From: an uncultured Clostridium sp.
GTDB taxonomy: Bacteria > Bacillota_I > Bacilli_A > RF39 > UBA660
Reading direction: 5' to 3'
Assembly (NCBI GenBank): GCA_902493795.1
Contig: CABUQZ010000001.1
Span: 38,697 to 102,696, forward strand
Length of the DNA: 64,000 bases
Shown in pieces: positions 25,259 through 49,967 of the stretch. A program made the translations under genes and the position numbers. The notes under the pieces are model-generated. The model was given only the letters and a program-made list of their open reading frames with translations. It made no database searches and was not told where the DNA came from. Within the stretch, counting starts at the first letter, position 1. Each line of letters opens with the position of its first letter.

Positions 25259-26617
25259 TTATTTTTGTAAATTAATAGTTATCTTGTAACTAGAGTCACT
25301 ATCTGCTTCTTCAAAGCTAACTTTATATCCTTTACCTTCAAGTGAAGTAATTGCATTTTTTATATCAGCAATTGCAGGAGTTAAATCAGCTTTAGTTGGA
25401 ACAGCAATTCCAACAGATCCAATAGAACTAGCAACATTTACTGGTTCTTTAGCTATATTTGAGTTAAAAAATTGATCAAAATTATTAGTAGTTGGTGGTG
25501 GAGCTAAAGTAGAAGCTGTCGTTGTTTGCAAAGGAGATGTTGTAGTTTGTTCTTTATTTGCTGTTTGATTAAAACCAAACGTTGGAACAAATTTAAATCC
25601 ATCATTTTGTGGCTCAGTTGTATCTTTCATAAGATCTTTTACATCAACTGTTTCTGGTTTTATTCCACCTATATCAACAGAATTTTCTCTTATTTTATTT
25701 ATATCTATTGTTGTAGGATTATTTTGAGTTATAGGAGCACTTGTTTCTTTTACAGGTTCAGTTTCAGGCTCTGTAGATGAAGGTATTCCAAAATTAGCTA
25801 AATTAAATTGAGGTGCTGTTGTAGATTGTTCACTTGGTAACGAACTAACACTACCAATAGCTTGATTTTGAACATTTCCCACTATATCATTAGCTGTTAA
25901 CATATTATTAATTCCTATCTGGTTATTCATAGTAGCACCACCCTCAACTGTTCCACTTGGATTTACATTATCTGTTCCAGGTTTACTATCATTTATTAAC
26001 TTAATTTCTTTATCTAAATCTCTAACAGTCATCTTTTCATCAATGATTCTATTTAACATTTTTATTTGGTCATTTTTATCTTGAAGATTCAATAAGCTTC
26101 TTGCATGACGTTCAGAAATTTTCGTTTTTAACAAAGCATCTTGTACTTCATCTGGAAGAGCAAGCAATCTTAATTTATTAGATACAGAAGACTGTGTTTT
26201 ACCCATCGTTGCAGCAAGTTGCTCTTGAGTCATATTATCCTCAAGTTCTAGTATTTTTTGGTAAGTTCTTGCTTCTTCAATAGGAGTTAAATCCCTTCTT
26301 TGTAAGTTTTCAATTAATGCAACCTTAGAACTTTCTTTATCATCTAAATTTTTTACTATAGCAGGTATTTTAGTAAGTCCTGCCATAGTAGAAGCCTTAT
26401 ATCTACGTTCTCCTGCTATTATCTCATACTTATTATCAACTTTTCTAACAATAATGGGCTGAATAACCCCATGTTCCTTAATTGAAACAGCAAGTTCCTT
26501 TAATGCTTGATCATCAAAAACTTCTCTTGGCTGAAATCTATTAGGAATAATATCATCTAAATATAATGAAACTACTTCACTATTACCATCCATAACTAAC
26601 ACCCTCTTCTTATACAC
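25259..26617 (-). CDS. noc: Nucleoid occlusion protein Noc (ParB paralog) with a long low-complexity C-terminal extension
   Basis: IPNRFQPREVFDD..GVIQPIIVRK..EIIAGERRYKAS..KISERHARSLL matches Noc/ParB. Residues 230-415 are a T/P/Q/N-rich disordered tract, followed by a short C-terminal domain. Confidence 0.75.
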   Translation of the reverse strand: MYKKRVLVMDGNSEVVSLYLDDIIPNRFQPREVFDDQALKELAVSIKEHGVIQPIIVRKVDNKYEIIAGERRYKASTMAGLTKIPAIVKNLDDKESSKVALIENLQRRDLTPIEEARTYQKILELEDNMTQEQLAATMGKTQSSVSNKLRLLALPDEVQDALLKTKISERHARSLLNLQDKNDQIKMLNRIIDEKMTVRDLDKEIKLINDSKPGTDNVNPSGTVEGGATMNNQIGINNMLTANDIVGNVQNQAIGSVSSLPSEQSTTAPQFNLANFGIPSSTEPETEPVKETSAPITQNNPTTIDINKIRENSVDIGGIKPETVDVKDLMKDTTEPQNDGFKFVPTFGFNQTANKEQTTTSPLQTTTASTLAPPPTTNNFDQFFNSNIAKEPVNVASSIGSVGIAVPTKADLTPAIADIKNAITSLEGKGYKVSFEEADSDSSYKITINLQK

Positions 26618-26667
26618 CTTACTATAACATTATAAAATAAAACAATAAAAAATTAAAGTATTTTATT

Positions 26668-26702
26668 AAAAAAGTGTGATTATATTAATCACACTAATTA
26701 AT
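26668..26702 (-). terminator. Rho-independent terminator after the pilin-like gene
   Basis: AGTGTGATTA-ATATA-ATCACACT followed by a T-run on the minus strand. Confidence 0.6.
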
Positions 26703-26707
26703 TTATA

Positions 26708-28030
26708 TTATTTTAATTCTGGAACTGCATTTGTATCAGACGTTTCTACTCTTAAGAATCCATCATATTCTGCTGTTTCTCCAGGAGACAACGTTCTTCT
26801 TGTAGTATCATATTCAGATGGATAAAACGTATACTCATTATTATTTTTTACATACATTAATGGATTATAAGAATAAGCATTTTTAAACTCAGGAGGTGCT
26901 ACTAAAACAAATGACCAGTCTTTAACATCAGTAGAAGAAGTATTAGTAACATAAACATTATAATCTTCTACATAAGAGCTTCCTCCAGCTGTATAATAAC
27001 TTTTTCTTTCTAATCTAACTTTTAATGTAGGAAGTTCAGCATACATATCATTTGAATCTCCAACTACACCACCATGTGATGTTCCTTCATGAGTACCATC
27101 GATAAGTTCAACATATTGAATATTACCATTTTTCAATATAAACTCTTTGTCTTTAGGGAACTTAATTTGGAATCCACTATTGAAATTGCTATGTGATGCA
27201 TTTAAATAGTTCCATGTAGATTGAGATGGATTTCCTATAACTTTTAATTTAGTTCCATTTAATTCAAGCTTTACTAAGCTTTGATCAAATCCAGGATTAT
27301 CTAGAATTGTTCCTTCTGGTACATCAAAAGTTGCATCAAATGACTTAATTGTCGACAAGTTACCAATATTTGTAACATCAATTGCAGCATTATAACAAAC
27401 TTTATAATCACCTTGAATACTACATCTATCTAAACGAACATCTATTTTTAATTTCAAGTCTTTATAAATCCATGTAATGTTATCTGTTGTTGTTGTAGTA
27501 GTAATATTTTGTTCAATTGTTTCTTTAGATGTACAGTTTGCATTATATACGACAACATGTTCTTTCCCCTCGATTGATTGAATCTTAACATCTGATATAG
27601 ATAATCCAGCTTCAATTAAATCGGCATCCAAATCATCGTATTTTGTTAAATCTTTAATTCCTTGTCCTGTTTCATCAACACTTGTCCAATAATAATCATA
27701 TCCATTACCATTGTAAGTAACAACTATATAGGCACTGACGAAATCACCATATGGTGAAACTGGTTTATCTCCGTTTTCAAGGTTAATACAAGAAGATGGA
27801 ATGTAATAAGTAACTGAGGAATCGTATGCTTCTAACTTACCGCTATTAACTAAAACTCTAGCACCGCCAATAACTTGTTTTGCTGTATCGACATATGCAT
27901 TTTTCCTTGAACTAGAGATATATGAAGTAACACTAGGAATTGCAATTATCATCAATATACCCAATATGATAATAACTGCTAATAATTCAATTAAAGTAAA
28001 CCCTTTCTTATTCTTTTTTTTCATTTTCAT
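26708..28030 (-). CDS. Type IV prepilin-like protein (N-terminal methylation motif) with a large C-terminal extension containing two repeated beta-rich modules
   Basis: Class III signal KKGFTLIELLAVIIILGIL. The C-terminal half has two modules of about 90 aa sharing VTN..G...W / GF motifs, reminiscent of carbohydrate-binding or Ig-like domains. Confidence 0.7.
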   Translation of the reverse strand: MKMKKKNKKGFTLIELLAVIIILGILMIIAIPSVTSYISSSRKNAYVDTAKQVIGGARVLVNSGKLEAYDSSVTYYIPSSCINLENGDKPVSPYGDFVSAYIVVTYNGNGYDYYWTSVDETGQGIKDLTKYDDLDADLIEAGLSISDVKIQSIEGKEHVVVYNANCTSKETIEQNITTTTTTDNITWIYKDLKLKIDVRLDRCSIQGDYKVCYNAAIDVTNIGNLSTIKSFDATFDVPEGTILDNPGFDQSLVKLELNGTKLKVIGNPSQSTWNYLNASHSNFNSGFQIKFPKDKEFILKNGNIQYVELIDGTHEGTSHGGVVGDSNDMYAELPTLKVRLERKSYYTAGGSSYVEDYNVYVTNTSSTDVKDWSFVLVAPPEFKNAYSYNPLMYVKNNNEYTFYPSEYDTTRRTLSPGETAEYDGFLRVETSDTNAVPELK

Positions 28031-28052
28031 ATATCCTCTCTAATATAAGAAC

Positions 28053-28081
28053 ATTATAATTGATTTAATTAGCATTGTCAA
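28053..28081 (-). promoter_or_regulatory. Consensus sigma-A promoter driving the pilin-like gene (-35 TTGACA, 17 bp, -10 TATAAT)
   Basis: Perfect hexamers on the minus strand at 28076-28081 and 28053-28058. Confidence 0.6.
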
Positions 28082-28098
28082 AAAAAAGAGAATATATT

Positions 28099-28803
28099 CT
28101 ACATATATTCCTTTTTAATTACATCCACTCTTCTAGGATACTTTTTATTTGTTTTTGATACTTTTACAAGATTAATGAGTGTTCTAGCACTGTTTTCTAG
28201 TGGTAAAACAAATTTATTAACATTAACTAGTTCTAAACCCAAAGAAGATGATTTAAGTAAAAATTTATTTAATTCTTCTTCACAATTACCTTTCATAAAA
28301 ACTAAATGACCATTAATTTTAAGAGCACTCACAGATATTTCTGATATAATTCCTAAATTAGCTACTGCTCTTGCAGTTATATAGTCAAATTCTTCAACAT
28401 GTTTTTTTGAATAATCTTCCATTCTTTCGTGATATGCATCAATATCTTTTAAATTTAATTCTCTTATTACATAAAGCAAATAATTAACACGCTTTTGTAA
28501 GGAATCAATCAAAGTAATTTTAACATTAGGAAAAAATATTTTTATTACTATTCCAGGAAACCCTGCACCACTTCCAACATCACATAATCTACACTCTTTA
28601 GATAAATCGATTTCTTTACAAAGTGTTAAACTATCATAAAAATGTTTCAAGTATACATCTTTTTCTTCTGTTATAGCAGTTAGATTAATCTTTTCATTCC
28701 AATCAACTAGCATATGATAAAATCTATCAAGTAAGTTTAACTTCTCTTCTGTAACTTCTATACCTAACTTTTTAACTTCTAAAATAAACTCATCCTTATT
28801 CAT
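28099..28803 (-). CDS. rsmG: 16S rRNA (guanine527-N7)-methyltransferase RsmG (GidB)
   Basis: LCDVGSGAGFPGIVIKIFFP. Confidence 0.9.
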   Translation of the reverse strand: MNKDEFILEVKKLGIEVTEEKLNLLDRFYHMLVDWNEKINLTAITEEKDVYLKHFYDSLTLCKEIDLSKECRLCDVGSGAGFPGIVIKIFFPNVKITLIDSLQKRVNYLLYVIRELNLKDIDAYHERMEDYSKKHVEEFDYITARAVANLGIISEISVSALKINGHLVFMKGNCEEELNKFLLKSSSLGLELVNVNKFVLPLENSARTLINLVKVSKTNKKYPRRVDVIKKEYM

Positions 28804-30652
28804 CTTTATTCCTCTTTAAATATAAAAGTAACATGGAAATATCAGCAGGATTAACTCCACTAATTCTAATTGCTTGTCCAATAGAAATAGGTTTAATCTC
28901 ATTAAGTTTTTGTGCTGCTTCCTTAGCAAGATTAGGTACTTTACTATAATCTATATCATCAGCTAATTTAATCTTTTCATATTCAAGCATTTTCTCTGCT
29001 TCTTTATTTGCCTTATTAATATATCCTTCATATTTAGTATTTATTACAACTTGTTCAATAACATCTTTAGAAAATTCTTTTTCTACAAACTTTTCTATGT
29101 TTTCATATTGAATCTCAGGTCTTTTTAATAAATCATAAAGTGTAATTGAATCAAGAAGTGTTGCACTATTTATACTTTCTAAATACTCATTAATCTCCTT
29201 TTTTGGAGTTATCTTAGTCTCTTTTAAAATATCTGTTAAAAGTTTTATATTATTCTTCTTATCTTCAAATTTCTTATATTCTTCTTCATTAATTAACCCA
29301 ATATTATGGCCATAATCCATAAGTCTTAAATCAGCATTATCATGTCTTAAAAGCAAACGATATTCTGCCCTTGATGTTAGAAGTCTATAAGGATCTATTA
29401 CCCCTTTAGTAACCAAGTCATCGATAAGCACCCCAATATATGCTTCATTTCTTCCTAAGATTATTGGTTCTTTTCCATCGATTTTTCTAGCTGCATTAAT
29501 TCCAGCAATTAATCCTTGACCTGCTGCTTCTTCATACCCACTTGTACCATTTATTTGTCCAGCAGTATATAAATTCTCTATAAATTTACATTCAAGTGAT
29601 GGTTTTAACTGCAATGAATCTATTGCATCATACTCTATAGCGTAAGCATATTTAACTATTTCGGCATGTTCAAGACCTGGAAGACTATGAACCATTTGTT
29701 CTTGTATGTCATGTGGCATACTTGTAGAAAATCCTTGTAAATAAATATCATCGTAGTATAAGCTTTCTGGTTCCAAAAATAACTGATGTCTTTCTTTATC
29801 AGCAAATTTAACTATTTTATCCTCAATAGATGGACAATATCTAGGCCCAACACCAGTAACATACCCACCATACATACTAGATTTAGATAAATTATTTCTT
29901 ATTATCTCATGTGTTTTTGGAGTAGTATAAATTAAATAGCAAGGAACTTGTTCTTTAGGGTCATAATTAGGAGTATTTGAAAAAGAAAAATTGTATAACT
30001 CATCATCACCAGGTTGTATAGTAGCCTTTGAATAATCAATACTACTTTTTTTAATTCTTTGAGGAGTTCCTGTTTTTAATCTTTTAATATTAAATCCAAT
30101 ACGCTTTAAGGCATCACTTAAATACAAAGATGGTTCTTCATCATGAGGCCCACTAGATACTTTAGTGTCCCCACATAAAACCATACCTTTTAAATATGTT
30201 CCAGTTGTAATGACTAAGCTTTTACCTTCTATTTTTGTTCCATCTCTTAATATAATCGCTTTAAACTTTCCATCTTCCACAATAATATCTTCGGCCATTG
30301 CCTCTAATACTTCCAAATTTTCTTGATGAAGAATTGTCTCTTGCATCTCTTTTTGATAAGTAACTTTGTCAGCTTGTGCCCTTAATGCTCTTACTGCAGG
30401 TCCCTTTTTTGTATTAAGCATTTTCATTTGAAGAAAACTCTTATCAGTATTCTTACCCATTTCCCCACCTAAGGCATCTATTTCTCTTACAATAACTCCT
30501 TTAGCAGGTCCACCAATTGATGGATTGCATGGCATATCAGCAATATTTTTTATTTTACCAGTAACCAATAATGTTTTCTTACCTAATCTTGCACTAGCAA
30601 GACTTGCTTCACATCCAGCATGACCTCCACCAATAACTATTACATCATACAT
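28796..30652 (-). CDS. mnmG: tRNA uridine 5-carboxymethylaminomethyl modification enzyme MnmG (GidA)
   Basis: MYDVIVIGGGHAGCEASLASARLG; the tracked ORF extends 5 codons further upstream. Confidence 0.95.
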   Translation of the reverse strand: MYDVIVIGGGHAGCEASLASARLGKKTLLVTGKIKNIADMPCNPSIGGPAKGVIVREIDALGGEMGKNTDKSFLQMKMLNTKKGPAVRALRAQADKVTYQKEMQETILHQENLEVLEAMAEDIIVEDGKFKAIILRDGTKIEGKSLVITTGTYLKGMVLCGDTKVSSGPHDEEPSLYLSDALKRIGFNIKRLKTGTPQRIKKSSIDYSKATIQPGDDELYNFSFSNTPNYDPKEQVPCYLIYTTPKTHEIIRNNLSKSSMYGGYVTGVGPRYCPSIEDKIVKFADKERHQLFLEPESLYYDDIYLQGFSTSMPHDIQEQMVHSLPGLEHAEIVKYAYAIEYDAIDSLQLKPSLECKFIENLYTAGQINGTSGYEEAAGQGLIAGINAARKIDGKEPIILGRNEAYIGVLIDDLVTKGVIDPYRLLTSRAEYRLLLRHDNADLRLMDYGHNIGLINEEEYKKFEDKKNNIKLLTDILKETKITPKKEINEYLESINSATLLDSITLYDLLKRPEIQYENIEKFVEKEFSKDVIEQVVINTKYEGYINKANKEAEKMLEYEKIKLADDIDYSKVPNLAKEAAQKLNEIKPISIGQAIRISGVNPADISMLLLYLKRNKDE

Positions 30653-30716
30653 ATTTATCACTTCCATAAATCTATTGTATTATAATACAAAAATTATTAA
30701 AAAAAAAGAAATATTT

Positions 30717-33700
30717 CTATTCCTTTTCTTTAGCGACAGTCAACATTAGTTTTATTCTATTAACTTGATTAGTATGACTTGCTCCTGGATCATAATCAAT
30801 AGCAACAATATTACTATCTGGATAAAGTTTTCTTACCTTTTTAATTACTGCCTTACCTACTATGTGATTAGGAAGACAAGCAAAAGGTTGAACACAAACA
30901 ATATTATTTATACCTTCTTTAATAAGTTCAACCATCTCTCCAGTTAAGAACCATCCTTCACCAGTTTGATTTCCAACAGACAATATTCCTTCAACATTAT
31001 CAGCAAGTTTATAAATATCAACACTTTTTCTAAATCTAGTACCCTCTAACGCTTTATCTATTGGTTTCTCATATAAATGGATAATTTCAAGCATTTTTTT
31101 ACATAAGTAAGAGTAAAATGACCCTGTCTTAAACAATTTATCTTTAATTAAGCTATTATAAGCACAATACTTAACAAATCCCATAAGTTCAGGAGCACAT
31201 ACTTCTACTCCTTCTTTTTCAAGTTTATCAACTAAATGGTCATTTCCAAACGTATGATACTTAATAAGTATTTCACCAACAATTCCAACTTTAGGTAATT
31301 TTTTATCTTCTATTTCAATCTCACTAAATCTTTTAACAATTTTATTTATATTTTTCTTATATTCTTTAAATTTTCCATGATACAATGACTCTTCACACAT
31401 TTTTTCAAGCTCATCATACACTCTATTAGTTTCACCTTTGTTAACTTCATAAGGTCTAGTAGCATAGCTAAGTTTCATTAATAAATCACCATAACTTACT
31501 GCTTGAAGTAATTTATTGATAAGTGAAATATTTAAATGGAACGCTTGATCTTTTTCAAGTCCAGAAAAATTCAAAGACATAACTGAAACTTGAGGAAGCC
31601 CAGCATCTACTAAAGCTTTTCTAATTAGTCCTATATAGTTAGTAGCACGACATCCACCACCAGTTTGGGTTAAAATGACACTAGTATTATTAACATCATA
31701 TTTTCCACTAAGCAAAGTATGTACAAGTTGGCCTATAACTATAATTGCAGGATAACAAGCATCATTATTAACATATTTTAACCCTGTTTCAATCATTTCT
31801 TCAGTTGTTTCTTTTAAATATACAGGTTTATATCCTTGTGATAACAATGTTGCGCCCAACAAAGGCATATGAAATTGCGAAACATCAGGAAATAACAATA
31901 TATGTTTTTTATCGGCTTCACTAAAAGTATTCTTTTGATAACTATATGTTTCATATTCTTTATCATTTTGTCTTTTATTCATAGATGCAATTAAAGATCG
32001 AATTCTAATCTTTGCAGTACCTAAATTATTTACTTCATCTATTTTAATTGTAGTAAATAACTTATTATTAAATCTTAATATTTCTTCAGCTTGATCTGTT
32101 ACTATCGCATCAAGTCCACATCCAAAAGAATTTAAATTAACAAGTTCTAGGTTATCATAGCGACTTACAACATCACACGTATTAAATATTCTAGCATGGT
32201 ATTCCCATTGATTCATTACTCTCATTTTAGATTTAATTTTACTTAGATGACAAATTGAGTCTTCTGATAACACAGCAAGGCCTAAAGAATTTATCATAGT
32301 ATCAATTCCATGATTTACTTCTTTATCCAAATGATATGGACGCCCAGCAAGAACAATTGCCTTCTCATTATGTTTTAAAATATATTCTAAGAATTCTTCA
32401 CCCTTATCTTGAACGTCTTTTTTAAACTTTTCTTGTTCTTTAAACCCTAAAGCAACAGCTTTTTTAACTTCACTCTTTTTAAACTTGTATTTCTTAAATT
32501 CAGGAATTTCTAATAATCTCAAAACAAGTTTTTCTTGTTCAATAGGTAAAAATGGATTTATATAAGTTATATTGTTCTTCTCGATATCTTCAACATTTAA
32601 TTTAATTGCTTCACTATAAGAAGTTACTATTGGACAGTTATAATGGTTATCTGAGTTATCAAATTCACTTCTTTCATACATCAAACAAGGATAAAATATT
32701 GTCTTTACTCCTTTATTTATTAAATTGATAATATGTCCATGTACTAGTTTTGCAGGATAGCAAACTGATTCACTAGGCATTGATTCAATACCGCTTTCAT
32801 ATATTCTTCTATTAGAATGATCTGAAATAACAACTTTAAATCCCAAATTAGTGAATATTGTAAACCATAAAGGATAATCTTCATACATATTAAGTACTCT
32901 TGGAATACCTATTTCTCCACGTGGAGCATCTTCTATTGGTTTATAATCAAATAATCTATCATACTTCCAAGCATACATATTGGGTAATGTTGAACTGCTT
33001 CCATTGTTACCACTACCTCTTTCACACCTGTTACCAGAAATAAACCTTTTCTTATCAAACATATTTATTGTTAATGCACAATGGTTTTCACATCCCTGGC
33101 ATCTTGTGTTTGTTGTCTTAACCTTTTGATTTAATAGTTCTTCTTTAGAAAGCATAGAACTTACTATATCTTTATCGTCATACTTATTAAAGTTATCAAG
33201 AGCAATTAAAGCTACTCCATAAGCCCCCATAAGTCCAGCTATATCAGGTCTAATTACTTCTTTATGCGTAATATTTTCAAAAGCTTTTAAGACAGCATCA
33301 TTTAAGAATGTTCCACCCTGAACAACTATCTTTTCTCCTAGAGTAGTCATATCTCTTATTTTCATAACTTTTTGAATGGCATTACGAATAACAGAATAAG
33401 AAAGCCCAGCAAAAATATCACCTAAAGGTCTTCCCTCTTTTTGAGTTTGTTTTATTTTACTATTCATAAATACTGTACAACGACTACCTAAATCTATTGG
33501 AGACTTACTCTTAACAGCTAAGTCTACAAAATCATTAACTGTCATACCTAAGCTCTTAGCAAGTGTTTCAATAAAAGAACCACATCCACTAGAACAAGCT
33601 TCATTTAACATTATAGAGTTAACTGCACCATCTTTAATTCTGATGTACTTCATATCTTGTCCACCAATATCTATGATACTTTCAACTCCAGGCAAGAAAT

Positions 33701-34961
33701 AATTAGCAGCTTCATAATGAGCCATTGTCTCTATTTCACTAATATCAAGATTAAACGCTGTTTTAATAAGCATTTCACCATAACCAGTTGAACCACTTTG
33801 CCTAATAATAACTTTAGGAGGAAGTTTACTATATAAATCAAGGATCATTTCCTTAGCAGTATCATAAGGAGTACCTTTATTGCTTTGATAATTTTCATAT
33901 AGTAATTCCCCATCACTACTTATCAAAACAACCTTACAAGTTGTACTTCCAGCATCTATTCCTACAAATGCATCTCCAACATAACTATTTAAATCTCTTT
34001 TCTTAATTGAGGACTTTTTATGACGTTTTAAAAACTTTTCATAATCTTTATTATCTTTAAATAATGCTGGTAAATTATTAGATTCCTCTTCTTTAAAAGA
34101 CTCTAGTTTTTCCTGTATTTTTTTAAATTCTTTAATATCAAATACATTTTTCTTTTCTTTATCAAGTATTGCACCAATACACACAAAAACTTTTGTATCG
34201 ATATTAGGGTTAACCACTTCATCATCATTTAAGTTCAAAGTACTAATAAATCTATCTTTTAAACTAGATAAATAAGTAAGAGGTCCTCCCAAAAATATAA
34301 CATTACCCTTTATTGGCTTACCACAAGCAAGTCCACTTATTGTTTGGTTAACAACTGCTTGCATTATAGAAAGAGCTACATCTTCTTTTTTAGCTCCTTC
34401 ATTTAAAAGAGGTTGAACATCTGCTTTTGCAAACACCCCACAACGAGAAGCTATTGGGTAAATTGTTTTACCATTCTTAGCTAAATCATTAAGTCCTTCT
34501 GTTGTTGTATTCAAAAGTACTGCCATTTGATCCAAAAAAGAACCTGTTCCACCAGCACAAGAACCATTCATTCTTTGTTCTATTGTTTGATCAAAATATA
34601 TAATTTTAGCATCTTCCCCACCAAGCTCAATACACACATCAGTTTGAGGAACAAATTCCATAATAGCATTCTTACATGCAATTACTTCTTGAACAAAGTT
34701 AACATCCAAAAACTTAGCAAGTGCAATAGCACCACTACCAGTCATTGTTAATGTATAATTGTAACCTTTAAACTTTTCCATAATTTCAGAAAACAAAGTA
34801 AAAATTGTTTTCTTAGTATCTGAAAAATGTCTTCTATATTCACAAAATAAAATATTATTTTCTTTATCCATTACAACTGCTTTAACAGTAGTTGAACCAA
34901 CATCTAATCCTATATTTACTACTTTCATATAAATTACCACCGATAAAAATAATAGTAACAC
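30717..34961 (-). CDS. Fusion protein: two BadF/BadG/BcrA/BcrD-type ATPase (CoA-substrate-specific enzyme activase) domains, a DUF2229-like Cys-rich segment and a 2-hydroxyacyl-CoA dehydratase D-component (HgdB)-like domain
   Basis: Two acetate/sugar-kinase-fold blocks (NIGLDVGSTTVKAVV and FVGIDAGSTTCKVVL); Cys cluster RCQGCENHCALT..CERGSG; C-terminal HgdB-like region (~520 aa); 1414 aa in total. Confidence 0.65.
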   Translation of the reverse strand: MLLLFLSVVIYMKVVNIGLDVGSTTVKAVVMDKENNILFCEYRRHFSDTKKTIFTLFSEIMEKFKGYNYTLTMTGSGAIALAKFLDVNFVQEVIACKNAIMEFVPQTDVCIELGGEDAKIIYFDQTIEQRMNGSCAGGTGSFLDQMAVLLNTTTEGLNDLAKNGKTIYPIASRCGVFAKADVQPLLNEGAKKEDVALSIMQAVVNQTISGLACGKPIKGNVIFLGGPLTYLSSLKDRFISTLNLNDDEVVNPNIDTKVFVCIGAILDKEKKNVFDIKEFKKIQEKLESFKEEESNNLPALFKDNKDYEKFLKRHKKSSIKKRDLNSYVGDAFVGIDAGSTTCKVVLISSDGELLYENYQSNKGTPYDTAKEMILDLYSKLPPKVIIRQSGSTGYGEMLIKTAFNLDISEIETMAHYEAANYFLPGVESIIDIGGQDMKYIRIKDGAVNSIMLNEACSSGCGSFIETLAKSLGMTVNDFVDLAVKSKSPIDLGSRCTVFMNSKIKQTQKEGRPLGDIFAGLSYSVIRNAIQKVMKIRDMTTLGEKIVVQGGTFLNDAVLKAFENITHKEVIRPDIAGLMGAYGVALIALDNFNKYDDKDIVSSMLSKEELLNQKVKTTNTRCQGCENHCALTINMFDKKRFISGNRCERGSGNNGSSSTLPNMYAWKYDRLFDYKPIEDAPRGEIGIPRVLNMYEDYPLWFTIFTNLGFKVVISDHSNRRIYESGIESMPSESVCYPAKLVHGHIINLINKGVKTIFYPCLMYERSEFDNSDNHYNCPIVTSYSEAIKLNVEDIEKNNITYINPFLPIEQEKLVLRLLEIPEFKKYKFKKSEVKKAVALGFKEQEKFKKDVQDKGEEFLEYILKHNEKAIVLAGRPYHLDKEVNHGIDTMINSLGLAVLSEDSICHLSKIKSKMRVMNQWEYHARIFNTCDVVSRYDNLELVNLNSFGCGLDAIVTDQAEEILRFNNKLFTTIKIDEVNNLGTAKIRIRSLIASMNKRQNDKEYETYSYQKNTFSEADKKHILLFPDVSQFHMPLLGATLLSQGYKPVYLKETTEEMIETGLKYVNNDACYPAIIVIGQLVHTLLSGKYDVNNTSVILTQTGGGCRATNYIGLIRKALVDAGLPQVSVMSLNFSGLEKDQAFHLNISLINKLLQAVSYGDLLMKLSYATRPYEVNKGETNRVYDELEKMCEESLYHGKFKEYKKNINKIVKRFSEIEIEDKKLPKVGIVGEILIKYHTFGNDHLVDKLEKEGVEVCAPELMGFVKYCAYNSLIKDKLFKTGSFYSYLCKKMLEIIHLYEKPIDKALEGTRFRKSVDIYKLADNVEGILSVGNQTGEGWFLTGEMVELIKEGINNIVCVQPFACLPNHIVGKAVIKKVRKLYPDSNIVAIDYDPGASHTNQVNRIKLMLTVAKEKE

Positions 34962-35018
34962 TATTTAAAATTAAATGCAATTTATGAATTTTTTTCCCAT
35001 AATTTTCCAAAACTGCAA

Positions 35019-36374
35019 TTACTTACCTAAACAGAACTGACTAAATAGCTGATCTATTAATTCATCACTATAGTTTTCTCCAAGAATTTCACCAAGTTTA
35101 GTCCAAATTCTTTTAATATCTATAGCAACTAAATCAACAGGAACATTGTTGCTTATACCATTTTCAACATCAGATAATATAGGTAAGCACTCTTTAGCAA
35201 GAGTTATTTGTCTTGCATTTGTTAGAATTTCAACATCAGAACTTCCTATTTCTTCTAGGTTAAATAATTCAATAATCTTATTTTTTAATGATTCAATACC
35301 ATCAAGTGAAACTGTATCAGTATAAATAACATTTTTTAAATTTGTTACATCACTTTCTATTTTACTTTCTAAGTCTTTTTTATTAATTACTGTAATATAC
35401 TTTTTATCACCAATCATATCGATTAATTTATAATCGTCACCAGTTAGCTTTTCATTATTATTTAAAACAAGTAGGACTAAATCTGCTTTACTAATTTCTT
35501 TAATACTCTTTTCGACACCAAATTTTTCTACAACATCATCAGTATCTCTAATTCCTGCTGTGTCAATAAAATTAAGTAGAATGCCATTAAGTGTTATGCT
35601 TCCTTCAACTACATCTCTAGTTGTACCAGCTATTTCTGTAACAATTGCTTTATTTTCTCCTAAAAGACAATTTAAAATACTACTCTTTCCTACATTTGGA
35701 CGTCCTACAATAGCTAGATTAATACCTTCTTTAATAATTTTTCTTGTTTCACTTTCCTTAATTATAGAGCTAATTGATTCTTTCATAGAAGCTACCCTAC
35801 TCTTTATATCATTAATAGTAACTGTTTCAATATCTTCATATTCTGGATAATCTATATTAACTTCTACATTAGCAAGTAATTCAAGTAATTCCTGTCTAAA
35901 TTTTCTAATTACACCAGTAAGTCTTCCCTCTAATTGTTTCATAGATTGTTCTCTTGCTTTATCAGTTTTAGAATTAACTATATCCATAACTGCCTCAGCT
36001 TCTACTAAATCTATTCTCCCATTTAAAAATGCTCTTTTGGTAAACTCCCCTTTTTCAGCAAGTCTAGCCCCATTAAGTACCATAATTTCAAGTATTTTAT
36101 TAGTTGAAGCAATACCACCATGACAATTTATTTCTACAACATCTTCCCTTGTATATGTCTTTGGTGCTTTCATAACGCTTACTAAAACCTGGTCTATTTT
36201 AACGTCATCTTGTACAATATATCCAAAATTAATAGTATGACTATCTACTTTAGTTAAGTCTTTGCCACTAAAACATTTATTAACTAACTCAATACACCCA
36301 TTACCAGTTAATCTAATAATTGATATAGCACCCTTCCCTAATGCTGTAGATATAGCTACAATAATATCATTCAT
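35019..36374 (-). CDS. mnmE: tRNA modification GTPase MnmE (TrmE)
   Basis: G domain GRPNVGKSSILN and a C-terminal CxGK motif. Confidence 0.95.
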   Translation of the reverse strand: MNDIIVAISTALGKGAISIIRLTGNGCIELVNKCFSGKDLTKVDSHTINFGYIVQDDVKIDQVLVSVMKAPKTYTREDVVEINCHGGIASTNKILEIMVLNGARLAEKGEFTKRAFLNGRIDLVEAEAVMDIVNSKTDKAREQSMKQLEGRLTGVIRKFRQELLELLANVEVNIDYPEYEDIETVTINDIKSRVASMKESISSIIKESETRKIIKEGINLAIVGRPNVGKSSILNCLLGENKAIVTEIAGTTRDVVEGSITLNGILLNFIDTAGIRDTDDVVEKFGVEKSIKEISKADLVLLVLNNNEKLTGDDYKLIDMIGDKKYITVINKKDLESKIESDVTNLKNVIYTDTVSLDGIESLKNKIIELFNLEEIGSSDVEILTNARQITLAKECLPILSDVENGISNNVPVDLVAIDIKRIWTKLGEILGENYSDELIDQLFSQFCLGK

Positions 36375-36411
36375 ATAATCACTCCCTTAAAGAAAAAAGG
36401 ACTTCACGTCC

Positions 36412-41545: not shown

Positions 41546-42004
41546 ATGAACAATTATGAAATTAATGAAGATACGTATGCAATTATTTCACAGAATAGTG
41601 GAAAAACAAGAATAGTAGAAAGAAAATATGAGTTAGATGTGGAAAAAAATGCATACGAAATTATGGATGAAAGCTGTAAATACTATGGAAGTAGCTATAA
41701 GGGTAGAATAGAAGCTGCTAAAGATATTTTAAATTGTAGCTATAAACTGCCAATACTAGTAGAGGAGAGTAGTGCATTAATATTTTTTCCAATTAAGTCT
41801 TCTTTATTAGAAGATTGCTGTTGGATTAATCTTAATAGCATTGATAATATTGAAAAACAGAATAATAAATCTATTGTGACATTTAAAAATGGTAAAAAAG
41901 TGACCTTTGATATTTCTAAACTTTCACTAGAAAATCAAATTTATAGATCATCTAAATTAGAGTCAATAATTTATAAAAGAAAAAGTGCAAAAAAAAGGGA
42001 TTAA
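41546..42004 (+). CDS. comK: ComK-family competence transcription factor homolog
   Basis: SCKYYGSSYKGR, KLPILVEESSALIFFPIKS, CCWINL, VTFKNGKKVTFDISKLSLENQIYRSSKL align with conserved blocks of B. subtilis ComK. Confidence 0.7.
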   Translation: MNNYEINEDTYAIISQNSGKTRIVERKYELDVEKNAYEIMDESCKYYGSSYKGRIEAAKDILNCSYKLPILVEESSALIFFPIKSSLLEDCCWINLNSIDNIEKQNNKSIVTFKNGKKVTFDISKLSLENQIYRSSKLESIIYKRKSAKKRD

Positions 42005-47763: not shown

Positions 47764-47804
47764 TAATTTAGTTGTAATTTATTAATTAATATAGTAAAAT
47801 TTAA

Positions 47805-47892
47805 TTGATGCAATAAGTACGGCAGAACTAGGTCAGGACAGGAATGTAGCAGCCTTAATGCTTATAAAAATTTGTACTTATGTGCATCATTT
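47805..47892 (+). ncRNA. ffs: Signal recognition particle RNA (small 4.5S-type)
   Basis: Domain IV motif AGGUCAGG-ACA-GGAA-UGU-AGCAGCC closes a GGAA tetraloop. The 5' segment GATGCAATAAGTAC pairs with the 3' segment GTACTTATGTGCATC. A tadA-scr-dnaX neighbourhood is known from Bacillus. Confidence 0.7.
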
Positions 47893-47913
47893 TTTTTGGA
47901 GTTGTGGAAGTAT

Positions 47914-48336: not shown

Positions 48337-48346
48337 TATAAAAAAT

Positions 48347-48372
48347 TGTGGATAAAAGTTTCACGTGAAACG
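48347..48372 (+). promoter_or_regulatory. Composite element 1: DnaA box TGTGGATAA (48347-48355) abutting parS-like AGTTTCACGTGAAACG (14/16)
   Basis: Direct sequence match; 1-nt gap. Confidence 0.7.
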
Positions 48373-48465
48373 AAGTAAAAAAAATCTACGTAATAATTCC
48401 AATAATAGATTATTTATTGGAATTTTTTTTTGAAAATATTTCCTTATTACATTTTTTATTTAAAT

Positions 48466-48850
48466 ATATTATTTCTTGGGAAATATTCTATAAATTATTT
48501 CCCAAAGACCATAGATAGTAAAAATATATTTCCCGAGAAATATTTATATATAATTATTATCTTAATATATTAGTTGTTAAAAAAAATATTTCCTGGGAAA
48601 TATTCGATAAATTATTTCCCAAAAACTATAAATAGTAAAAAATATATTTCCCGGGAAATAATTATATGTAATTATTATCCAATATAATAGTTGTTGAAAA
48701 AAAATTTTTCCCAGGAAATATTCTATAAATTATTTCCCAAAAACTATAAATAGTAAAAAATATATTTCCCGGGAAATAATTATATGTAATTATTATCCAA
48801 TACAATAGTTGTTGAAAAAAAATATTTCCTAGGAATTATATAAATATTTT
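48466..48850. repeat. About 3.2 tandem copies of a 119-bp repeat, each carrying two Noc-binding-site-like palindromes
   Basis: Unit starts at about 48466, 48586, 48704 and 48823. Perfect ATTTCCCGGGAAAT at 48646-48659 and 48764-48777. Variants with 1-3 mismatches: ATTTCTTGGGAAAT (48471), ATTTCCCGAGAAAT (48528), ATTTCCTGGGAAAT (48588), TTTTCCCAGGAAAT (48706), ATTTCCTAGGAATT (48825). Confidence 0.85.
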
Positions 48851-49135
48851 ATATAAAGTATTAATTAAAGAATAGTGATTGCAATTTTATTTTAAGAATA
48901 ATCTTTTTATATTATATAAGATTATTTTTATTTGTGGAAAAAGAAATATATAGTTTTAATAATAAAGAAAATAAACGAAGAAAAAATATTTAATAATAAA
49001 CATATTTTATAAAAAATAAATTTTGTATATGCATCTTGTTGATAAAAGTTATAAGTGGCAAAAGAGAAGAAAATATAAATGAAAAAATGGTAAAACGAAG
49101 AAAAAAAGATTAATTTATTAAATACAAACAGTTTA

Positions 49136-49161
49136 TGTGGATAAATGTTTCACGTGAAACA
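49136..49161 (+). promoter_or_regulatory. Composite element 2: perfect DnaA box TGTGGATAA plus perfect parS TGTTTCACGTGAAACA (49146-49161)
   Basis: 16/16 match to the Bacillus-type parS consensus TGTTNCACGTGAAACA. Confidence 0.85.
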
Positions 49162-49250
49162 TAATAATAATCTGGAAAAAGGAAGTAATAAACAAAATAG
49201 GTGAAAAACAGAACGGAGAATAAGATATTGATGAATAAATTAAGAAATCA

Positions 49251-49275
49251 AAAGGATAAAGTTTCATGTGAAACT
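49251..49275 (+). promoter_or_regulatory. Composite element 3 (degenerate): AAAGGATAA plus AGTTTCATGTGAAACT (13/16)
   Basis: Same architecture as the other units, with mismatches. Confidence 0.45.
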
Positions 49276-49375
49276 ATTGATAGTGGAAAAAGATATTATA
49301 TAGAATAAAAAAGAAAGTAAAACGGAGAAAAAAAGTTTTATATATAACATTTAAGAAAAATAATATGAACATTTT

Positions 49376-49400
49376 TGTGAATAATGTTTCACGTGAAACA
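49376..49400 (+). promoter_or_regulatory. Composite element 4: DnaA box TGTGAATAA plus perfect parS TGTTTCACGTGAAACA (49385-49400)
   Basis: 16/16 parS; the box has one mismatch. Confidence 0.85.
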
Positions 49401-49488
49401 TAAAACTTAGTGGAAAATATAAAAAATATTAATAATTTGATATGATTATAATTGTGACTAAATGCTTTATGTATCAAAATTTCTAGAT

Positions 49489-49513
49489 TGTGGAAAAAGT
49501 TTCACGTGAAACA
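49489..49513 (+). promoter_or_regulatory. Composite element 5: DnaA box TGTGGAAAA plus parS AGTTTCACGTGAAACA (15/16)
   Basis: Direct sequence match. Confidence 0.75.
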
Positions 49514-49585
49514 TTATAAATAAAATGTAGAATATAACTTATAAATAATATTTTAAATAATAATGTAATAAAAACGGTTGTGCTT

Positions 49586-49686
49586 TGTGGATAAAAATTG
49601 TTGATTAAAAAAATAGAAATATATGTAAAGTAAAATAAAAATAGAATATTAAAAAATAATTTTTATATATTTTTTATTGTGGATAA
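49586..49686 (+). promoter_or_regulatory. Two further perfect DnaA boxes (TGTGGATAA at 49586-49594 and 49678-49686) inside an almost pure A/T tract (49600-49900)
   Basis: 9/9 consensus boxes in the same orientation as the composite units; the flanking DNA is over 90% AT. Confidence 0.7.
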
Positions 49687-49930
49687 AATTTAAAAAAACA
49701 AAAAAATATGTGTTTTAACACTTTTTATATCAAGAAAATAACAAAAATGTAATAATAATATTTATATGTATGATTTTGCTTATAAAATATTTTTATAGAT
49801 AAAAAATAATGTTTTTATATAATGTCAATATGTATGCTTAAAAATAAATGTAAAGTATGTAAATATACGTAAAAATAATGATAACTTGTTGATAAAAAAT
49901 ATATTCAAAATGTCTGTAAAATAAAATATT

Positions 49931-49945
49931 TATGGTATAATATAT
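49931..49945 (+). promoter_or_regulatory. Extended -10 promoter element (TGgTATAAT) for dnaX
   Basis: tatggtataat lies 25 nt upstream of the dnaX start. Confidence 0.45.
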
Positions 49946-49967
49946 CTTGAGATTTATAGGGGGACTT

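Follow-up and report, generated by a model that had tools for sequence, protein, structure and literature searches.

A lone prepilin gene between rsmG and noc in an uncultured Clostridium sp. probably encodes a modular type IV pilin with two CBM2-like modules

The DNA analysed here (the window) is a stretch of 64,000 nucleotides from an uncultured Clostridium sp. of the GTDB lineage RF39 (contig CABUQZ010000001.1, positions 38,697 to 102,696). It is AT-rich, with 27.6% G+C, and carries a single prepilin gene between rsmG and the noc position. This gene probably encodes a modular type IV pilin, in which a pilin carrier is joined to two effector modules resembling carbohydrate-binding module family 2 (CBM2), and the product would act as a surface glycan adhesin in a filament. 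A modular pilin is understood as an N-terminal pilin module with at least one module not specific to pilus biology; the protein has the former at residues 11-175 and the latter at residues 183-322 and 333-440. The gene and the parts of its product lie as follows.

26708..28030, minus strand: coding sequence of the modular prepilin, 440 amino acids (aa) from the first ATG, with its stop codon at 26708-26710.
28001..28030, minus strand: class III leader peptide, residues 1-10 (MKMKKKNKKG), with Gly(-1) at its end and a predicted prepilin-peptidase cut at G10/F11.
27935..28000, minus strand: hydrophobic alpha1-N segment, residues 11-32 (mature F1 to P22), bearing F1, E5, G14 and P22.
27506..28000, minus strand: pilin (carrier) module, residues 11-175, from the AlphaFold2 model.
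27065..27484, minus strand: CBM2-like beta-sandwich module A, residues 183-322, predicted, with conserved Cys203 and Cys212 and a predicted local distance difference test score (pLDDT) of about 90.
26711..27034, minus strand: CBM2-like beta-sandwich module B, residues 333-440, from Foldseek and profile matches.

The N-terminus of the prepilin reads MKMKKKNKKGFTLIELLAVIIILGIL, in which the leader MKMKKKNKKG is followed, past the predicted cut, by FTLIELLAVIIILGILMIIAIPSV. It has the parts of a type IV pilin signal, namely a short hydrophilic leader with Gly, then Phe(+1) and Glu(+5) (MKMKKKNKKG/FTLIE). The protein passed the cutoffs of both Pfam N_methyl (PF07963; residues 5-31, E=1.1e-8, 34.7 bits against a cutoff of 21.2) and TIGR02532 (29.7 bits against 16.3), confirming the class III, prepilin-type N-terminus described in the first-pass annotation. 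F11, T12, L13, E15 and P32 were invariant in 36 full-length homologues and G24 was at least 90% conserved; the motif G-1/F+1/T+2/L+3/E+5 was invariant in these 36 and also in 84 more distant homologues. The hydrophobic segment runs from mature F1 through TLIELLAVIIIL to G14, and on through ILMIIAI to P22, agreeing with an alpha1-N of about 21 hydrophobic residues in which Gly14 and Pro22 break the helix, as is typical of type IVa pilins. Profile matches to solved pilins (MshA, PilA, PilE1 and gonococcal pilin) spanned query positions 1-63.

An AlphaFold2 model of the whole prepilin was built on the 36 full-length homologues. Its mean pLDDT was 86.4 and its predicted template modelling score (pTM) 0.55, the low pTM fitting domains strung like beads. 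The pilin module was predicted to consist of an alpha1 helix (13-62), strands at 73-78, 96-106, 111-119 and 124-130, and a short hairpin reaching to about residue 173, giving a pilin architecture in which a helix about 50 residues long packs against an antiparallel beta-sheet. In a separate model, the N-terminal 180 residues reached a pLDDT of 93.7, and Cys81 and Cys166 of this module were conserved among homologues. Two beta-sandwiches were predicted at about 186-317 and 336-440, with a low-confidence linker at about 320-335 between them. Structure prediction, which the first-pass annotation had suggested as a check, thus returned a pilin module and two beta-sandwiches. The C-terminal extension it had put at roughly 380 aa exists, but the pilin module takes about 165-175 residues, leaving about 265 aa.

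A comparison with hhalign showed modules A and B to be homologous (probability 94.7%, E=6e-8). For module B, Foldseek found the CBM2 fold, matching 6qfs_A, the cellulose-binding domain of Cellulomonas fimi Cex, with a TM score of 0.69 over the target, an rmsd of 2.8 Å and a probability of 1.00. Further matches were the CBM of endoglucanase D (3ndy, chain 3ndy_E) and the chitin-binding domain of ChiC (2rtt), and the profile of module B matched 1exg with E=2.8e-6. Among the homologues, 26 of the 36 aligned matched Pfam CBM_2 (PF00553) at E<=0.1, the best with E=7.5e-11. The gathering score of this model, 24 bits, was passed in the module A region by P0003 (32.2 bits), P0024 (31.3) and P0018 (28.8), and in the module B region by P0021 (30.5) and P0025 (26.3). 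Membership in CBM2 comes by homology transfer only, and both modules are therefore named CBM2-like. By predicted fold, by profile and by homologues both are of this type, which bears out the two related beta modules of carbohydrate-binding type noticed at first.

The profile-to-1exg alignment also placed residues of interest. The invariant W372 aligned with Cex W38, which we take to be a buried core Trp, and the columns opposite Cex W54 and W72 were aromatic in the family consensus. Y388 and Y407, which map opposite these columns, were aromatic in 72% and 56% of homologues, respectively, the latter position being Trp in 13 and Tyr in 7. Y346, just upstream of the W17-aligned region, was aromatic (Tyr, Trp or Phe) in 92% and is a candidate third aromatic residue, which we read as the equivalent of W17. 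CBM2 domains bind polysaccharides through an aromatic strip, with three Trp in CBM2a and two in CBM2b. The aromatic positions are compatible with a CBM2a-type strip without proving one. The occurrence of the cassette outside pilins was also examined, using residues 183-440 and then an 18-sequence profile; all 8, and then all 13, proteins recovered carried N_methyl, a weak negative, as the search was word-indexed and missed many known members.

The prepilin gene is real, its best homologue in the protein search matching with E=1e-285, and it has its own signals for transcription and translation. These and the flanking genes are listed here.

28053..28081, minus strand: sigma-70-type promoter, TTGACA at 28081-28076, a 17-nt spacer and TATAAT at 28058-28053, beginning 18 nt past the rsmG stop codon.
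28034..28041, minus strand: Shine-Dalgarno sequence AGAGAGGA, from direct reading of the sequence, with a spacing of 3 nt to the first ATG (28030) and of 9 nt to the second (28024).
26673..26695, minus strand: intrinsic-terminator-like hairpin with a 10-bp stem and a 3-nt loop, then TTTTTT, 13 nt past the stop codon.
28099-28803: rsmG, the upstream flank of the prepilin gene (GidB match, E=9e-48).
25259-26617, minus strand: ParB_N/HTH_ParB protein of 452 aa at the noc position, followed by parA and parB.

The promoter matches the consensus at 12 of 12 positions and was the sole perfect site in a scan of 26500-28300, so the perfect TTGACA-17-TATAAT first reported holds. It was conserved in loci L001 and L002 of relatives, and L006, where the protein is 49% identical, has TTGATA-17-TATAAT. 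Because of the Shine-Dalgarno spacing, the second ATG and a 438-aa product are favoured, and the 98%-identical relatives are called from that ATG, with 438 aa. The first-pass annotation was thus right about the open reading frame (ORF), 26708-28030; the gene lies on the minus strand, however, and more likely starts two codons later than the 440-aa product given there. With its consensus promoter and terminator, the gene is presumably its own transcription unit, and its expression, including a high level, would follow from these signals.

The gene had also been described as inserted in an otherwise invariant rsmG-noc junction. The location was right. The order rsmG-pilin-noc was found in three lineages whose pilins are 49-98% identical, namely L001-L003 (98%), L006 with P0008 (49%) and L092 with P0010 (49%), and the G+C content of the gene, 28-30%, is like that of its flanks. 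For both reasons a recent horizontal insertion was rejected, and the gene is an old resident of the junction. It also evolves fast: between the window and L006, housekeeping proteins were 70-88% identical, the pilin about 50% and Noc 55%. As a separate observation, comparison of 26400-36400 of the window with L001 showed 23 codon differences in the prepilin gene (14 synonymous, 9 not), all in codons 5-169, and zero in codons 170-440 of these 98%-identical relatives. Upstream of about 27,500, a tract of about 4% divergence extended across rsmG and mnmG and further, while 26,400-27,500 was nearly identical. This switch in divergence therefore points to a recombination breakpoint at or near the boundary of the pilin module and the CBM2-like modules. 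In the ParB paralogue at the noc position, ParB_N and HTH_ParB are followed by some 240 C-terminal residues, largely of low complexity with abundant Thr, Pro, Asn and Ser; this paralogue is also fast-evolving, with 55% identity to its L006 orthologue against 87% for ParA.

The gene stands alone, as the first-pass annotation said in calling it an orphan, and so do many of its relatives. P0020 lies alone between a LemA-like gene and an AAA ATPase gene, P0013 alone between thrS and mraZ, P0015 before yabP and yqfD, and P0026 and P0021 among unrelated genes. Several loci have two to five pilin-module genes within 20 kb of housekeeping genes; L008 has three paralogues in 21 kb, and L091 and L093 have several. 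Scattered pilin genes, by their arrangement separately transcribed, are the rule in this clade, and the orphan status is no anomaly.

The extent of the family was then clear from searches with the whole protein and with its pilin module. The full-length search gave more than 2,100 matches, about 35 of which have the whole architecture (98-36% identity). In the remaining matches the likeness is confined to the first 160-175 residues (50-70% identity), and the C-termini are unrelated, a few with DUF285 or DUF6273 and most without a Pfam domain. Residues 36-175 were also searched alone, the generic hydrophobic helix being excluded, against 1.84 billion cluster representatives, and matched 661 clusters at E<=1e-3 and 120 at E<=1e-30. 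The matches were always N-terminal, starting at residue 10-80, in proteins of 126-1291 aa. The pilin module is therefore a distinct conserved 'carrier', found with many different 'effectors'. In the full-length set the pilin module was 55-72% identical against 27-66% for the effector modules, and the linker (136-182) was the most variable part.

A scan of GTDB species representatives placed the relatives in uncultured gut and rumen Bacilli and returned only relatives of the N-terminal module. Records of relatives were labelled Erysipelotrichaceae, Bacilli, Tenericutes, Mollicutes and Candidatus Onthousia, and one is a complete chromosome of 1.31 Mb. Contig or sample labels of several ('RUG', 'Sheep_Rumen', 'Goat_Rectum') look like rumen or herbivore gut, the habitat being read from names only. 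The literature on pilin expansion in metagenome-assembled genomes (MAGs) of RF39, RFN20, ML615J-28 or Erysipelotrichales yielded nothing specific; a paper on Bulleidia describes tad and comG loci only.

Some further observations were made on the relatives. In L028 (2900-13405), from a Hadza-gut 'uncultured Bacilli' MAG, five tandem genes for proteins of about 590-680 aa each have a prepilin motif at the start, which is a local expansion of large pilin-like proteins. L016 (9989-14400) has a tandem pair of small pilins (188 and 192 aa) and, after them, genes resembling a conjugation module of Gram-positive type, including one for a 580-aa polytopic TrbL/VirB6-like protein, an identification made by eye only; this hints that some small pilins of the family may travel on mobile elements. 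On L093, the contig of P0015, there are genes for a Mur ligase and for YabP and YqfD, both of them sporulation proteins (1470-2853), and on the contig of P0013 a gene for a penicillin-binding protein with PASTA domains. By these genes, at least some hosts of the family are walled and may form spores.

The genes of a pilus machinery were found in relatives. The contig of P0013 (46% identical, full-length, same architecture, 27.2% G+C) carries T2SSF and Peptidase_A24 genes about 8 kb upstream and also encodes another member of the family. With the PilD of this contig as a probe, ten metagenomic loci were obtained, six of them at 23-28% G+C, and these six share a conserved addB-addA-pilC-pilD-dnaI-like arrangement. 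In L090, L095 and L097 a gene with the same pilin module lies 1-8 kb downstream of pilC-pilD, that of L097 being pilin plus DUF285. In L090 (1-3300), L094 (2691-11752) and L097 (941-7505), pilC-pilD is flanked by addB/addA-like nuclease-helicase genes on one side and a dnaI/IstB-like ATPase gene on the other; the T2SSF protein of these low-G+C contigs is unusually long (526-537 aa), and no PilB adjoins pilC-pilD in them. L055 has a PilB ATPase beside four small pilins, and L022 has PilC and PilD. The machinery genes themselves are dispersed in relatives. The clade thus has both a platform protein and a prepilin peptidase linked to the pilin family, which the genome of the window may share.

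A mechanism in four steps may be proposed for a modular pilin of this kind. The gene would be transcribed as its own unit from the consensus sigma-A promoter, for which the signals are present. The prepilin would then enter the membrane via the hydrophobic alpha1-N helix, and a peptidase of PilD or ComC type, encoded elsewhere, would cut after Gly10 and methylate Phe11, as the motif and the pilD genes of relatives suggest. The pilin module, with F1, E5, G14, P22 and an alpha1 of about 50 residues on a beta-sheet, would let a type IV machinery lift the protein from the membrane and place it in a pilus. It would most likely stand at the tip or as a sparse subunit, by analogy with PilB and PilC of Streptococcus sanguinis and because each copy carries about 265 extra residues. 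The CBM2-like sandwiches would be held off the cell on flexible linkers, and the distal module, with aromatic residues where CBM2a has its cellulose-binding tryptophans, may bind a glycan that is insoluble or polymeric (from plant fibre or the host, or chitin-like), attaching the cell to gut or rumen particles. Such glycan binding is suggested by the retained aromatic positions, the rumen- and gut-like sample labels, and the Ruminococcus precedent of pilins and cellulose.

Several results weigh against this proposal. With the isolated pilin module, Foldseek found no solved pilin at E<1, so the globular part is not assignable to a known pilin structural class. The query itself had no Pfam CBM_2 match even at E<=1, and the search with hidden Markov models for CBM families that had been recommended succeeded for the homologues, which pass 24 bits, but not for the query. 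The candidate binding-face positions are only 56-92% aromatic, and in the query they are Tyr, not Trp. The sandwiches could instead be stalk or spacer domains, or bind a non-glycan ligand. The consensus promoter points to a high level of expression, more in keeping with a major surface protein than with a rare subunit at the tip. Finally, as the first-pass annotation had remarked for the neighbourhood, no pilus assembly genes are near: phmmer with Bacillales pil operon proteins from L040 and L052 found no homologues of PilB, PilT, PilC, PilD or PilM in the window. A second prepilin motif was also not found there.

With these points taken into account, an adhesive pilus protein is the best-supported reading, and the main rival we see is that of a pilin-like membrane anchor without a filament. 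The class III signal and alpha1-N would tether the protein with its N-terminus inside and its C-terminus outside, so that the CBM2-like modules are shown on the surface, a sortase-independent display in Bacilli with reduced genomes. It would account for a monocistronic gene with a consensus promoter unlinked to machinery genes, for the many paralogues scattered among housekeeping genes in relatives (L008, L091, L093), and for the bulky load of 265 aa on each subunit. Moreover, the related uncultured orders RFN20 and ML615J-28 are reported to be without sortases (PMC10868615). On the other hand, E5 and P22 are invariant and G14 is conserved. In type IV pilins these residues function in the assembly of filaments and not just in anchoring. 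The globular pilin module is also better conserved than the effectors, which suggests contacts between subunits or between subunit and machinery, and family members lie near pilC-pilD in relatives. We consider the anchor unlikely, though worth keeping in mind.

A competence (Com) pseudopilus subunit, controlled by ComK, assembled by ComGA and ComGB and acting in DNA uptake, is improbable to a much greater degree. A ComK homologue is indeed encoded at 41546-42004 on the plus strand (PF06338, E=2.8e-41), in the unusual place between dnaN and recF where it had been noticed at first; its presence is suggestive of a competence regulon in this genome, which is small and low in G+C. Lying 13.5 kb off, it means that a Com system may exist in the genome, and the ComC peptidase of such a system could in principle process any class III signal. 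By E-value ComGC was the best NCBIfam match, but it reached 30.9 bits against a cutoff of 75, over residues 8-39 only. ComGE (21.5 bits, cutoff 49), ComGD (19.6, cutoff 70) and ComGF (14, cutoff 80) also fell short, all ComG matches lying within residues 6-43. ComG pilins are small and encoded in a comG operon, but the prepilin gene is alone between rsmG and noc, with no ComGA-like ATPase in the window. No ComK-box pair was found within 300 nt upstream, against 42 elsewhere in the window, as composition predicts; a full sigma-A consensus promoter would not be expected to need an activator, and the effector modules are of carbohydrate-binding, not DNA-binding, type. Of the two roles first raised, competence pseudopilus or adhesive pilus protein, the latter therefore stands far better.

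That the gene encodes an ordinary Sec-dependent secreted or membrane protein with a chance likeness to prepilins is hardly credible: a positive n-region and a hydrophobic stretch would also fit a Sec signal or signal anchor, but the conventional Sec signal is not borne out by the invariant motif in 36 and 84 homologues, the two curated models, the predicted alpha1 helix and beta-sheet, and the profile matches to solved pilins that reach residue 60 or so. Other candidates were rejected. The GspG major pseudopilin model (TIGR01710) gave 29.3 bits against a cutoff of 88.85, over residues 9-45 only. A sortase-assembled pilin does not fit, as there is neither an LPXTG motif nor a C-terminal hydrophobic tail, the protein ending in ...TNAVPELK; Foldseek matches to pilins of that type (BcpA, EbpC, FimA) had TM scores of 0.13-0.17 and rmsd values above 23 Å, a generic beta-sandwich likeness. 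The integrin-like reading from the top Foldseek rows had TM scores below 0.2 and rmsd values above 20 Å.

If the CBM2-like modules of this probable modular pilin bind plant or host glycans, it would be a candidate adhesin to fibre or mucus in Bacilli that are abundant but uncultured in gut and rumen, and would add to the Ruminococcus CbpC type another way in which pilins mediate adhesion to cellulose. A wider reading, which we put forward tentatively and regard as somewhat doubtful, is that a single pilin module may be the general surface-display carrier of small-genome, low-G+C uncultured gut and rumen Bacilli. Hundreds of effectors (CBM2-like, DUF285, DUF6273 and many without a known domain) would be grafted on it, in separately promoted genes dispersed among housekeeping genes and served by a dispersed type IV machinery. 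A pilus system, not sortase and LPXTG, would then build most of the adhesive surface, new adhesins would arise by recombination in the linker between carrier and effector, and the gene of the window would be a fixed, highly expressed member beside the partition genes. The carrier family offers a compact natural system for the tolerance of bulky cargo in type IV filaments, and could reveal whether pilins stand in for sortase-anchored proteins where a lineage has lost its sortases. For annotation, a lone prepilin gene far from a pil operon is normal in this clade and should not be taken as a remnant or a recent insertion.

Other places in the window are recorded here. At 30717-34961 on the minus strand, between mnmE and mnmG, lies a gene for a 1414-aa fusion of BcrAD_BadFG ATPase domains and DUF2229, of the 2-hydroxyacyl-CoA-dehydratase activator and component type; it is kept in the same place in L001, L006 and L092. 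At 48337-49946, between a tadA-like deaminase gene and dnaX and about 10 kb from dnaA, 1.6 kb have no ORF longer than 67 aa. This region holds four of the five perfect DnaA boxes of the window (TTATCCACA, all on the minus strand) and five boxes with one mismatch. Most of all these boxes lie inside a repeated unit, TTGTGGATAAAAGTTTCACGTG. It also has the palindrome GTTTCACGTGAAAC five times and the palindrome TATTTCCNGGGAAATA seven times, spaced 57-60 nt. A displaced or second part of oriC is one possibility for this region, a DnaA-titrating cluster another. A small signal recognition particle (SRP) RNA at 47804-47894 on the plus strand (Rfam RF00169, 44.9 bits) overlaps the first 23 nt from the listed TTG start (47872) of the deaminase ORF, and the real start is probably further downstream.

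The modular-pilin concept and the pilin plus CBM2 architecture are already known, and the gene is a further example without a new principle. Raynaud et al. 2021 (PMC8179133) found more than 1,200 modular pilins in 264 architectures, and their Dataset S1 lists pilin plus CBM2 (IPR012902-IPR001919) three times and pilin plus DUF285 too. New in a descriptive sense are the tandem divergent CBM2-like cassette, the carrier family of at least 661 clusters in uncultured Bacilli, the dispersed pilin and machinery genes, and the fixed position beside partition genes; none of the four overturns current understanding.

Among known systems, S. sanguinis has PilB, a pilin with a vWA module, and PilC, a pilin with a concanavalin-A-like lectin module that binds glycans (PMC8179133; Shahin et al. 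2023, PMC9934059). The window protein shares with them the class III signal, a small N-terminal pilin module, a short linker, a non-pilus domain, a monoderm Firmicute host and a predicted role in adhesion. Unlike them, it has two tandem CBM2-like modules in place of one vWA or lectin module, and its gene is alone under its own consensus promoter, not in a pil locus. Its carrier belongs to a separate family of at least 661 clusters, so far from uncultured gut and rumen Bacilli and known from sequence alone.

According to PMC3672088, which cites Pegden et al. 1998, CbpC/GP25 of Ruminococcus albus and Pil3 of R. flavefaciens are cellulose-binding type IV pilins. As in the window protein, the host is a Gram-positive rumen or gut bacterium, and cellulose-type adhesion is proposed via a protein of the Pil family. 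To our knowledge, CbpC/GP25 and Pil3 are small classical pilins without a recognisable CBM, encoded in a pil cluster. On that description they are set apart from the window protein, in which binding would sit in the added CBM2-like modules.

CBM family 2 (Cex, 1exg/6qfs) has the same beta-sandwich, with the core 'V.V.N.....I..W.F.F' and the conserved buried Trp. CBM2 domains have a terminal disulfide, whereas module B is without Cys and module A has a different Cys pair. The query is also too divergent for the Pfam model, its binding-face residues are mostly Tyr and partly conserved, and its modules are attached to a pilin and not to a glycoside hydrolase.

CofB, a type IVb minor pilin of enterotoxigenic E. 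coli, combines a pilin with a beta-repeat and a beta-sandwich and is proposed to be at the tip (PMC8179133). No match of the window protein to CofB was found by sequence or by fold, and the two are alike in their three-part layout, a pilin module and then two beta-rich domains on a flexible linker. In contrast to the window protein, CofB belongs to a diderm type IVb system, is encoded in a cof operon, forms trimers and recruits a secreted protein. With ComGC and the other ComG pilins of Bacilli, the window protein has in common the N-terminal cleavage and methylation motif and the hydrophobic helix, with a ComK regulator encoded in the window, and it is distinguished from them by its size, its gene context and its C-terminal modules.

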